Assembly: GCA_951813565.1 (NCBI GenBank) | Contig: OX638351.1 | Location: 992,001-1,056,000 of the forward strand | DNA: 64,000 nucleotides | Reading direction: 5' to 3' | DNA from: an uncultured Poribacteria bacterium | GTDB taxonomy: Bacteria; Poribacteria; WGA-4E; WGA-3G | Notes under the pieces: model-generated | What the model saw: only the letters and a program-made list of their open reading frames with translations | The model's database searches: none | Told to the model about the DNA's origin: nothing | Program-made: the position numbers and the translations under genes | Shown here: piece by piece, positions 36,991 through 39,423 of the stretch | Layout: each line of letters starts with the position of its first letter | Numbering within the stretch: the stretch's first letter is position 1

Positions 36991-38094
36991 CTATTTTAAT
37001 TTCTCCTTTAATTCCGTGAGTTCTTTGTCAATTGATTCGTCTTCCGCGTAATTCGCAAATTCACGATGCAATTTGACGTCCTTAAATTCAATATCTACTT
37101 CGGAAGCTGCTTTTGCCAAAGCTGCAGCTTCACTTACGTTTTGTCCCATCTTCTTAAGCATCTCAAAAGCTTTATTGTCTTGCAGTTCAGACAATGTTTG
37201 TTGCAGATGTTCTTGGGCATCAACATTTCTGTGTTTTGCAATTACAACTTCTCTTTCTCGCTGTGTTTGCTGTGTTTTTTGCTGGAGTGTGTCAAGAAGT
37301 GTTGTGAGGTGTTCAACTGTCTTTTTTTGTTCTTCCCACTGTTCCTTGTATCGCCTTGCGATTTGTCTATATTCATTACGTTGTGCAAGGTCTTCACGTG
37401 CTAAATCATCTCGTTCCGCCTTAAGCGCGATGATGGCACGTTCTTCACACTTTTCTGCTTGTGCAATTGCTCCGTCATGGGCATTTTGAAACTGTTTTTC
37501 TATTCCGATGGAGGCGTCAACTTTCTGCTTTGCTTCTGAAAAACGATTTGTAATTTCCAGGATCACATCCTCTAATATCTTTTCCAAATCGGTTTCTTTA
37601 TCTATTTTTTCATCTTCGGAGACAATTTCGATTTGAGGAGAGTCGAGTTTGATAACGACCGTTTTCGCAAGTTTATCACCCATTCGCTGTCTGCCTTTTC
37701 CTAAGGCGAATAACCAGTCAATAGGTTGAAATATGGCAGCAAAACGACGAACGAACGCATCTTTATAGTTTGCTTGTTCTCCATCCTTCAAACGGACTAT
37801 TTTAAGAGATAATAATCTCTTTCCAAATCCTCCTCCATCTTCACGTCCGTCCATAAAAAAATAACCATACATCCACAATAAAATGCTTAGGACAAAGAAG
37901 GTAGTTGTGGCGGGATCATCGCCAAACATCATATATTCGTCAAAATCAGTGAAAATTACGGATTGTAAAAGTCCTATTAGCCATAATATAATTTGGCAGA
38001 ACCCCAAGAAACCGATGTCCAGCAAAAACGCACCTAACCTTGCCCAACGAGATGCCAATTTAAACTTTTCTCCAGCGATCTTAACAATAGACAT
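36991..38094 (-). CDS. RDD-domain / PspA(IM30) fusion protein, paralog 2
   Basis: RDD part: LASRWARLGAFLLD..FGKRLL..QRMGDKLAKTVVI. PspA part: DLEKILE..DDLAREDL..IDKELTELKEKL. Confidence 0.85.
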   Translation of the reverse strand: MSIVKIAGEKFKLASRWARLGAFLLDIGFLGFCQIILWLIGLLQSVIFTDFDEYMMFGDDPATTTFFVLSILLWMYGYFFMDGREDGGGFGKRLLSLKIVRLKDGEQANYKDAFVRRFAAIFQPIDWLFALGKGRQRMGDKLAKTVVIKLDSPQIEIVSEDEKIDKETDLEKILEDVILEITNRFSEAKQKVDASIGIEKQFQNAHDGAIAQAEKCEERAIIALKAERDDLAREDLAQRNEYRQIARRYKEQWEEQKKTVEHLTTLLDTLQQKTQQTQREREVVIAKHRNVDAQEHLQQTLSELQDNKAFEMLKKMGQNVSEAAALAKAASEVDIEFKDVKLHREFANYAEDESIDKELTELKEKLK

Positions 38095-38352
38095 GATCCG
38101 TATTTCTCCATCTTATTAGAGTTTATCATTACCAAAGAAGGTGGTTAAATCTTGTTCTATGGTGGGTACTCCATTTAAGGAAAAATTACACTTGAGGTAG
38201 GTGACAGTTCTGTCTGATTTGAATCAAGATGAGACTTCTTAATCTGAATATTGGTAGATATTGAAATTAATTGGACACTCTACACCAGCGAGGTTTGGAC
38301 ACCTCGCCTACCGCGAAACGAAAGTTATTATTAATTTTCAGGATTGTTATGT

Positions 38353-39423
38353 CTATTGTAATTTCGCCTTTAATTCTGCTAAGTCGTTGTCAAGGGATGC
38401 TTCTTCAGCATAACCAGCAAATTCTTTGTTTAACTTTGTATCCCTAAGATCAATATCCACTTCGGACGCTGCCTTTGCCAATGTCGCAGCTTCACTTACA
38501 TTTTGCTCCATTTGATTGAGCATTTCAAAAGCTGCACTATCTTGAACCTCTGTCAATGTTTCTTGCAGGTGTTGGTGTGCATCAACATTTCTGTGTTGTG
38601 CGATAACAATATCCCTTTTTCTTTCTGCTTCTTCAGTCTTCTGTTGCAATGTTTCAAGGAGCGTAGTGAGTTCTGCCACGACTTGCTTCTGTTCATCCCA
38701 TTGTGCTTTATATCGGTTTGCTAGTTGGCGGTATTCGTTCCGTTGTGCGAGGTCTTCCCGTGCCAAATCTTCCCGTCCTGCCTGAATCGCTATAGTTGCG
38801 CGCTCCTCACACCGTTCCGCTTGGACAACTGCCCCTTCATAAGCGTTCTGAAACTGCTTTTCAATCCCAATAGAGGCATCAACCTTCTGTCTCGCCTCAG
38901 CCAAACGGTTTGTCATTTCAAGGATAGCATTTTCTAAAACTTTTTCGGGGTCTTTTTCAGTTTCAGTTTCGGCTTTGGCTGCGATTTCTTCAAGATAAGG
39001 CTCATATTTAACGACAACTGTTTCAGCGAACTTATCCCCCATCCGCTGCTTTTTACCACCGAGGGCAAAGAGGAGATCAAACGGCTGGAAAAAACCTGTG
39101 AACCGACGAACGAATGAATCCTTGAAGGAACACGGTTTACCATCTCTTAACCGAATAACTTGTAATGACAGTACCCTTTTGCCGAATCCTTGTCCGTTTT
39201 TGAATCCATCCATGAAAAGTAGCCCGGCACTCCATACTAAGAAATATAGCAACGGAAATAAAGGTAGCATAAAAGGACGTTGAAACATGAATAGCAATCC
39301 CAACAGGCTGACTATAATGGAAGAGCAAAAAGAGGTGGCAATTAGATCAAATAAGAGCGCGAACGTCCGAGCAGCTCGTGACGCCAATTTGAATTTTTTC
39401 CCTGCTATCTCAAGTAGTTTCAT
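38353..39423 (-). CDS. RDD-domain / PspA(IM30) fusion protein, paralog 1
   Basis: RDD part: RAARTFALLFD..GQGFGKRVL..QRMGD. PspA part: DPEKVLENAILEM..AIQAGREDLARE..LDNDLAELKAKL. Confidence 0.85.
   Translation of the reverse strand: MKLLEIAGKKFKLASRAARTFALLFDLIATSFCSSIIVSLLGLLFMFQRPFMLPLFPLLYFLVWSAGLLFMDGFKNGQGFGKRVLSLQVIRLRDGKPCSFKDSFVRRFTGFFQPFDLLFALGGKKQRMGDKFAETVVVKYEPYLEEIAAKAETETEKDPEKVLENAILEMTNRLAEARQKVDASIGIEKQFQNAYEGAVVQAERCEERATIAIQAGREDLAREDLAQRNEYRQLANRYKAQWDEQKQVVAELTTLLETLQQKTEEAERKRDIVIAQHRNVDAHQHLQETLTEVQDSAAFEMLNQMEQNVSEAATLAKAASEVDIDLRDTKLNKEFAGYAEEASLDNDLAELKAKLQ

Follow-up and report, generated by a model that had tools for sequence, protein, structure and literature searches.

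Tandem RDD–PspA/IM30 fusion genes in Poribacteria: candidate membrane-anchored ESCRT-III-like proteins

The RDD–PspA gene pair

The window analysed here is a 64,000-nucleotide stretch of DNA from an uncultured Poribacteria bacterium (assembly GCA_951813565.1, contig OX638351.1, positions 992,001 to 1,056,000 of the forward strand). Its minus strand contains two adjacent genes, P0001 (38353-39423; 356 residues) and P0002 (36991-38094; 367 residues), which are separated by 258 bp and whose products share 59% sequence identity. Each product joins an N-terminal RDD membrane domain to a C-terminal domain of the PspA/IM30 family of bacterial ESCRT-III homologues. The features of the pair, with the evidence for each, are listed below; model confidence is given as predicted local distance difference test (pLDDT), and dN/dS is the ratio of nonsynonymous to synonymous substitution rates.

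38353..39423, minus strand: P0001, RDD–PspA/IM30 fusion, upstream copy, 'type A' (open reading frame; Pfam; AlphaFold2 pLDDT 75.9)
36991..38094, minus strand: P0002, RDD–PspA/IM30 fusion, downstream copy, 'type B' lineage common to genera g1 and g2 (open reading frame; Pfam; trees)
39025..39384, minus strand: RDD membrane domain of P0001, residues 14-133, with R19, D26 and D130 (PF06271; conservation; domain model pLDDT 84)
39214..39378, minus strand: variable transmembrane hairpin of P0001, TM1-loop-TM2, residues 16-70 (pairwise identity; span; dN/dS 0.52)
38956..39003, minus strand: acidic, non-amphipathic linker of P0001 at the place of helix 0, residues 141-156 (alignment; charge; hydrophobic moment; pLDDT <50 at 143-156)
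38362..38964, minus strand: PspA/IM30 domain of P0001, helices 1-5, with invariant F335 and Y338 (PF04012; PDB profile matches; fold search; residue tallies)
37663..38055, minus strand: RDD membrane domain of P0002, residues 14-144 (PF06271)
37000..37611, minus strand: PspA/IM30 domain of P0002, helices 1-5 (PF04012)

An earlier note on this DNA had proposed two neighbouring RDD–PspA fusions, and profile searches agree with it, as both domains exceed the curated Pfam cut-offs (24.1 bits for RDD, 33.9 bits for PspA_IM30) in both open reading frames. The RDD domain scores 45.9 bits in P0001 and 52 bits in P0002, and PspA_IM30 is matched at residues 154-354 of P0001 (92 bits, E 5e-26) and 162-365 of P0002 (79.5 bits, E 4e-22). 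The motifs DPEKVLE and DLEKILE, at which the PspA halves begin, lie where the note had placed them, from 38952 and 37590, respectively. Read-through of two separate genes was rejected, because neither frame has an internal stop and more than 100 homologues contain both Pfam domains. Misassembly was likewise rejected: in two public runs, each from a different study, contigs cover the two genes gaplessly and differ from the window by 0 and 4 letters, the first run being possibly the source of this DNA.

A PspA module without helix 0

PspA, Vipp1 and LiaH are described as soluble proteins whose reversible membrane binding relies on helix 0 and a positively charged hairpin; often, a distinct membrane partner recruits them first. 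In the fusions, the PspA_IM30 profile is matched only from position 19 (P0001) or 16 (P0002), and positions 1-18 and 1-15, corresponding to helix 0, remain unmatched. Alignment to canonical Poribacteria PspA places the fusion junction at the DPEK motif, just past the N-terminal helix of approx. 22 residues. Since DPEK corresponds to canonical residue ~22, helix 0 is gone, and its position is occupied by the RDD domain, as the earlier note had supposed. The two halves are connected by a linker of 13-27 residues with a mean net charge of -3.8, which is acidic in 74/74 aligned homologues. Its hydrophobic moment is 0.28-0.34 in three P0001 windows, compared with 0.54-0.85 in three canonical helices 0, so that the predicted absence of the usual amphipathic helix holds. 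Two residue features noted earlier, a cysteine in place of the usual tryptophan and the REDL motif, are both present. The Asp of REDL (D224) is invariant in the 74 homologues, but the cysteine is not diagnostic, as it is found in 59/74 sequences against tryptophan in 13/74 and other residues in 2/74.

The C-terminal half had also been predicted to form an ESCRT-III-type hairpin, which is supported by the PF04012 match, by modelling and by structure searches. An AlphaFold2 model of P0001, built on a 74-sequence alignment (mean pLDDT 75.9; predicted template modelling score (pTM) 0.38), predicts both helices of the hairpin (residues 159-214 and 218-295) with high pLDDT. With this model, Foldseek retrieves Vipp1 or PspA chains at all ranks from 1 to 17 (best E 2.6e-7), and a wide structure search lists E. 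coli PspA first (4whe_A; Z 12.6, root-mean-square deviation (rmsd) 3.3, 124 aligned residues). The assignment of the hairpin is nevertheless carried by the sequence match, because the Z values of generic, unrelated coiled coils differ from this one by less than 1. Profile matches in the PDB are to Vipp1 and PspA, with E 1e-25 for Vipp1 and an alignment that reaches Vipp1 residue ~217. No transmembrane window is found by hydropathy in either PspA half.

Residues of the polymer interface are retained in this module. Helix 5 of Vipp1 is essential for assembly, and the F197K/L200K exchange severely inhibits it (PMC8281802). The aligned residues F335 and Y338 are invariant in 74/74 homologues, as is L351 in helix 5, while L348 is conserved in 73/74. 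The dN/dS ratio of the PspA half is 0.07 for both paralogues, pooled against the window copies over 8 and 9 orthologue pairs, which were taken from the fetched loci and are not independent. Judged from these comparisons, purifying selection maintains helices 1-5 together with the residues of the polymer interface. PspA deprived of helix 0 still forms rods, which engulf no lipid (10.1101/2025.06.13.659447); a module without helix 0 can thus polymerise but needs another membrane contact. The hairpin has a mean net charge of -7.7 (range -12 to -4, n=74), against values between +1 and +2 for canonical PspA from Poribacteria (five proteins), and anionic lipid is bound by IM30 through its cationic hairpin (PMC12636044).

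The RDD half and its possible Pex-like fold

The RDD signature consists of an Arg at the start of the first transmembrane helix (TM1), an Asp in the middle of TM1 and a second Asp near the end of the domain (PMC5996927). In the fusions, R19 and D130 are invariant and D26 is present in at least 90% of the 74 homologues. An RDD domain is expected to have three transmembrane segments. Two transmembrane windows exceed a hydropathy of 1.5 in P0001 and the first one only does so in P0002; the P0001 model shows further short helices at residues 100-120. Lys and Arg residues number 6, 1, 6 and 5 in the N-terminus, the loop, the segment after TM2 and the end of the domain, respectively. Together with hydropathy, this positive-inside pattern suggests that both ends of the RDD domain are cytoplasmic. 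Conservation is distributed unevenly: mean pairwise identity is 0.36, 0.21 and 0.39 in TM1, loop and TM2, compared with 0.70-0.73 in the RDD core and the PspA helices, and the TM1-loop-TM2 span varies from 41 to 95 residues among homologues. Correspondingly, dN/dS is 0.05 and 0.09 for the two RDD cores versus 0.52 (P0001) and 0.23 (P0002) for the transmembrane hairpin.

The RDD half of P0001 modelled alone (window positions 38998-39423) reaches pLDDT 84 and pTM 0.73. Its best match among 48,161 chains is the membrane domain of Pex2/10/12 (7t92_A; Z 9.3, rmsd 3.6), with 124 of 142 residues aligned at 13% identity. Three chains reach Z >= 8, and the next-best match scores Z 5.4. The value of 9.3 lies below the ~13 that the tool advises for helical folds, and in Foldseek three 7t92 chains lead the list at a non-significant E of 0.43-0.63. 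Pfam gives no sequence link between RDD and Pex up to E 10, and its scans of both fusions contain no RING family, the C-terminal half being PspA_IM30. No solved RDD structure was retrieved by sequence-profile search of the PDB, and a feature search of the ESM Atlas with the RDD domain returned unnamed clusters only, below 0.9. The likeness is not new, since a preprint reports a structural alignment of RDD with PEX12 for a Wolbachia protein (10.1101/2024.04.10.588793). The modelled fold could point to kinship between this bacterial domain and the peroxisomal retrotranslocon, without implying a function.

This similarity is one argument for assigning the activity of the fusions to the RDD domain, as an oligomeric pore, cation antiporter or sensor that the PspA half would scaffold, cluster, gate or regulate. 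An RDD protein of Halobacillus has been reported as a Na+/H+ antiporter (PMC5996927), the Bacillus RDD protein SppI/YteJ belongs to an envelope-stress operon and purifies as an apparent octamer (PMC7568657), RDD occurs two- and four-fold in some fusions, and selective constraint is as strong on the RDD core as on the PspA half. However, these two experimentally studied RDD proteins disagree, as B. subtilis SppI, 39% identical, shows no salt or pH phenotype (PMC7568657). The residues implicated in antiport are R124, R129, D154 and D158 (PMC5996927); if D130 of P0001 and D140 of P0002 are equated with D154 by position, without alignment, the acidic residue that antiport needs four positions further on corresponds to E in P0001 and to K in P0002. 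Furthermore, conservation within the fusions is lowest in the transmembrane helices, which sets them apart from the conserved lining of a channel, whereas the helix-5 polymer residues are invariant. A primary role of RDD as the working part is therefore considered rather unlikely; its best reading is that of an anchor, which perhaps also senses.

Copy number and variation of the array

Array structure was surveyed in 70 loci with 3-kb flanks, in which copy counts are lower bounds wherever the flanks cut the array. In the window, the pair is flanked by a GFO/IDH/MocA oxidoreductase and a sulfatase, and Pfam reveals no psp or lia genes among the neighbours, in agreement with the earlier note. 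The same oxidoreductase and sulfatase genes enclose the array in 56/70 loci. In the genome to which the window belongs (G000, 95% complete), PspC (PF04024) was not found; PspB, PspF and LiaI were not included in this genome-wide search. Intact copies number 1, 2, 3 and 4 in 16, 37, 16 and 1 loci, respectively.

The second copy has a long history. P0002 belongs to a clade extending over two genera, with a Shimodaira–Hasegawa-like approximate likelihood-ratio (SH-aLRT) support of 100 in a quick tree and 100/98 for two rows in a careful one, which shows that the duplication is old and maintained, though not required. The paralogues could be obligate, specialised subunits of a heteropolymer, resembling A- and B-type ESCRT-III proteins, given that the P0002 lineage is last in the array wherever mapped and that both copies are under purifying selection after long divergence (dS 2.4 in the PspA half). 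Yet 16/70 loci show one intact copy. The copy is single in 13 of the 56 fully flanked loci, where it is always closer to P0001; two genomes (G079 and G032) have one fusion match genome-wide, the type-B lineage is missing from several two-copy arrays, and in G030 two copies reside at separate loci. The fixed, co-polymerising pair envisaged in the earlier note is thus not borne out, and obligate subunits are very unlikely.

Between the two genes, at 38241-38312, lies an element of ~60-70 bp with an inverted-repeat core and 24 other matches in the genome (76-89% identity), which presumably represents a dispersed repeat of the repetitive extragenic palindromic type. This repeat and the 258-bp gap imply that tight co-transcription of P0001 and P0002 is not required. 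A promoter and terminator scan was uninformative in this respect, with 25 promoter-like sites against 13.4 expected and 2 terminator-like sites against 6.1.

Relatives of the pair show further domain arrangements, including an RDDx2-PspA protein of 545 residues (L085:4911-6548), an RDDx4-PspA protein of 879 residues (L081:9528-12167) and a 713-residue protein in which PspA domains and RDD-like parts each occur twice (L084:7073-9214). Natural split forms were rejected: the three cases examined (G060, G137 and G092) are frameshifts and not clean gene fissions.

Distribution in Poribacteria and origin

The phylum was surveyed with 151 genomes, 100 from the family of the window (f1) and 51 from outside it, which include close kin and are not independent. 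A strong fusion match (P0001 at E < 1e-70) is present in 93/100 f1 genomes, counting the frameshifted G060, but in 0/51 of the others, where the best match has E 9.5e-42; the misses are G009, G025, G027, G042, G051, G102 and G130. Canonical PspA shows the opposite pattern: with PF04012 at E < 1e-40 and at most 18 candidates scored per genome, it is found in 0/100 f1 genomes (best E 7.8e-29) versus 44/51 others. Hence, the fusion appears to stand in for canonical PspA throughout f1. As for the distribution and copy number that the earlier note wished to see checked in GTDB, the fusion proves common, but in this one family only, at one to four copies.

Outside f1, the RDD half is matched in 37/51 genomes (best E 2e-22), yet none of the 30 fetched loci encodes PspA in the same open reading frame, and a phylum-wide fusion was rejected on this basis; 22 further matches were left out of this survey. 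These RDD relatives share ~40% identity and are stand-alone or fused to other domains. In genus g9 (L112:187-1902 and similar loci), an RDD domain of the same subfamily forms the C-terminus of a 571-residue MacB_PCD and FtsX permease, so this subfamily fuses to other envelope proteins as well. Poribacteria appears in the titles of 67 of the 70 GTDB loci, the other 3 being titled 'uncultured bacterium'; the loci derive from the best 80 of 126 confirmed stretches, and the search patterns favour close kin. The named fusion homologues are Candidatus Poribacteria, and Poribacteria is the commonest taxon of the 115-member ESM Atlas cluster that carries both families. No independent RDD–PspA fusion from another phylum was found in the 38 of 150 representatives scanned with Pfam or in the 70 GTDB loci. 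A search for longer RDD fusions starting from stand-alone RDD also returned none, which is weak evidence.

In trees built from the PspA half, the fusions cluster together as a single group (SH-aLRT 99 in a quick tree of 74 rows; 100/100 in a careful tree of 8 rows). Their identity to canonical Poribacteria PspA is 42%, compared with 32-34% to the best full-length representatives from outside, and on this identity the PspA half is likely descended from the canonical protein. Canonical pspA of the other families retains helix 0 and has a CesT/Tir-like neighbour, in one case accompanied by Band-7 genes; tblastn gave no match to the CesT/Tir and Band-7 neighbours in G000.

A second locus in families f2, f3 and f8 (L044, L045, L047-L050) contains two canonical-length PspA paralogues close by, with one to a few genes between them, including one of ~162 residues; flotillin-like genes are near once.

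Stand-alone PspA proteins and expression

The window's genome also encodes one stand-alone RDD protein and two divergent stand-alone PspA_IM30 proteins of 219 and 278 residues with amphipathic N-termini, and is thus not devoid of helix-0-bearing PspA. The 278-residue protein (L131; G000:C1:1153001-1161500; 35.5 bits) has a long hairpin insertion and is encoded upstream of an AAA ATPase of ~602-630 residues, in a cluster with a 290-residue putative membrane protein, a truncated copy of 181 residues and an unknown protein of 624 residues; this cluster resembles the PspA and AAA-ATPase context of PMC11237479. The 219-residue protein (L003:1489-2148; G000:C1:4940884-4941543; 34.8 bits) is encoded immediately upstream of genes whose sequences look like those of an ABC-type ATPase and permease.

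Transcript levels are available for the single-amplified genome (SAG) 3G from unstressed sponge tissue (PMC5087111), where variable genes may be undercounted if the reads stem from a divergent strain. On contig_121.122, the record behind locus L198 with the same fusion ORF (open reading frame) lengths, the supplement lists two adjacent genes, 1080 and 1179 nt long, that both carry pfam06271 and pfam04012, and their mean values are 37 and 42 fragments per kilobase per million (FPKM), ~0.05x housekeeping level. Two stand-alone PspA genes of 843 and 672 nt, which match the 278- and 219-residue proteins of G000 by length only, reach 419 and 55 FPKM, respectively. The main text of PMC5087111 names neither PspA nor RDD, and fusion-related terms are absent from the metaproteomics paper PMC6081418. 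A search of public sequencing runs listed no RNA run containing the genes, and two runs taken to be RNA gave no coverage of either gene, which says nothing on expression.

Such levels would suit low-abundance membrane nucleators or recruiters that seed soluble, helix-0-bearing PspA paralogues, and this second role for the fusions draws on the two stand-alone proteins, on the approx. tenfold higher expression of the 843-nt gene in SAG 3G and on the lack of a PspC match in G000. ESCRT-III offers a parallel, in that Vps20 seeds Snf7. Recruitment of LiaH by LiaI is a bacterial example (PMC7619361). The presumed clients, however, are divergent. The 278-residue paralogue, very much so, is clustered separately with genes for a putative membrane protein and an AAA ATPase; the length-matched counterpart of the 219-residue paralogue is itself weakly expressed; and the fusion genes are distant from both stand-alone genes. 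Seeding of these paralogues is accordingly regarded as doubtful.

Finally, fusion and array might be largely neutral by-products of duplication, without ESCRT-III work in a symbiont genome. Copy-number turnover, very divergent extra copies, the frameshifts in G060, G137 and G092 (possibly sequencing errors), absence from seven family genomes and low expression would all fit. This explanation is scarcely credible, because the gene is kept in 93/100 genomes at a fixed locus, the interface residues are invariant and dN/dS is 0.05-0.09 over RDD core and PspA half; the purifying selection estimated in this way largely refutes it.

Proposed mechanism

Taken together, the fusions are probably permanently membrane-anchored ESCRT-III-like proteins for membrane repair or remodelling, which took over from canonical PspA in f1. 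The RDD domain would be embedded in the inner membrane with both ends in the cytoplasm and joined by the short acidic linker to a complete module of PspA helices 1-5, which is predicted to retain the hairpin and helix-5 contacts used by PspA and Vipp1 for polymerising. Because helix 0 is lost and the hairpin is acidic, this module is probably unable to bind lipid alone. RDD would instead serve as the permanent membrane contact, in place of helix 0, of the cationic hairpin and of recruiter proteins such as PspB/C, LiaI or CesT/flotillin partners. The fusion proteins most likely diffuse in the membrane at low level, until a PspA-type lattice assembles at stressed or damaged patches and stabilises or remodels the membrane. 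This lattice may be a homo-polymer or, optionally, a mixed polymer of the paralogues, and the fast-evolving transmembrane hairpin may tune where and when each paralogue assembles, or may sense.

Several observations weigh against this explanation. Helices 4-5 are modelled with low confidence (block pLDDT 40-52). Hairpin charge spans -6 to +6 over 17 soluble PspAs and is negative in some, so the acidic hairpin of the fusions is a suggestive contrast. The RDDx4 and RDD-PspA-RDD-PspA forms are hard to fit into a standard rod lattice, and the SAG 3G transcript level is little for a structural polymer. Seven of the 100 f1 genomes are without a strong fusion match, including the smaller, single-contig genomes G027 and G025 (94-95% complete), in which neither fusion nor canonical PspA was found; the fusion is thus dispensable. 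Descent from canonical PspA, suggested by the quick tree (94), is neither shown nor rejected by the careful tree (79/35).

A bolder version of the anchored ESCRT-III-like protein treats the array as a repertoire of one-component sensor-effectors. Here, a Pex2/10/12-type RDD would oligomerise into a small pore or sensor, and variable outward hairpins would answer different envelope insults (host antimicrobial peptides, phage or lipid stress), triggering the tethered ESCRT-III lattice. This version is possible but unlikely. If true, it would represent an integral-membrane ESCRT-III that fully replaces reversible PspA and possibly shapes or buds symbiont membranes.

Significance

With the polymer interfaces kept, a whole bacterial family has apparently exchanged reversible membrane binding for a covalent transmembrane anchor. 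This constitutes a natural experiment, which asks if ESCRT-III-type repair and curvature depend on wedging by helix 0 and on reversible binding, or if tethering alone would do. It also links membrane remodelling to RDD, a family about which little is understood. The function is predicted, and the fusion is lineage-restricted, dispensable in some genomes and weakly expressed in one data set. To our knowledge, its sponge-symbiont hosts are uncultured; the proteins themselves are nevertheless amenable to expression and imaging in laboratory organisms.

Relation to known systems

The earlier note knew of no characterised example of this fusion, and a full-text literature search, which did not reach most subscription papers, likewise found no paper describing one. 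RDD is not mentioned in the available text of PMC7619361, PMC10936438 and PMC9279156. The pair of RDD and PspA domains is already present, undiscussed, in public annotation. In the literature found, the architecture is uncharacterised; by score it is a member of PF04012 and PF06271, but not a canonical PspA, LiaH or Vipp1. Accordingly, P0001 and P0002 score 63.5 and 51.3 bits against the NCBIfam PspA equivalog TIGR02977 (cut-off 242.95) and 55.6 and 42.2 bits against the LiaH equivalog NF045984 (cut-off 380), i.e., below both cut-offs.

With PspA, Vipp1 (IM30) and LiaH (PF04012; PDB 4WHE, 7ABK, 6ZVR, 8QHV), the fusions share helices 1-5, the DPEK start, the hairpin-tip motif and the helix-5 interface. 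They differ from these canonical proteins by the lack of helix 0, the acidic hairpin, the N-terminal integral-membrane RDD domain and the lack of a psp or lia operon. Unlike Vipp1, they end directly after helix 5, without the C-terminal extension (helix 6). With the RDD family, including the Halobacillus antiporter and SppI/YteJ, they have the R-D-D signature and hydrophobic helices in common; unlike known RDD proteins, they carry an ESCRT-III-like module, contain RDD up to four times and have no sppA neighbour. The Pex2/Pex10/Pex12 membrane domain (7T92) is the best fold match of the modelled RDD half, but the fusions are devoid of RING fingers and a ubiquitin system.

Two single search matches combine a PspA domain with other partners, a helix-0-less PspC-PspA protein of 274 residues (P0252) and a CesT_Tir-PspA fusion of 261 residues (P0158), both of which may be gene-calling artefacts. 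In the available text of PMC11237479, fusions make up less than 2% of PspA proteins and comprise tandem PspA, NlpC/P60-PspA and PspA-PspAA, besides a Snf7-RND transporter fusion; transmembrane-bearing PspA/Snf7 proteins in AAA-ATPase operons are also catalogued. Neither RDD nor Poribacteria occurs in its main text or in one supplement, while its tables and web application may bear on novelty. Membrane-joined bacterial ESCRT-III-like domains thus exist there too (PMC11237479). Unlike those fusions, RDD–PspA is characteristic of an entire family, occurs in arrays and is accompanied by the loss of canonical PspA.

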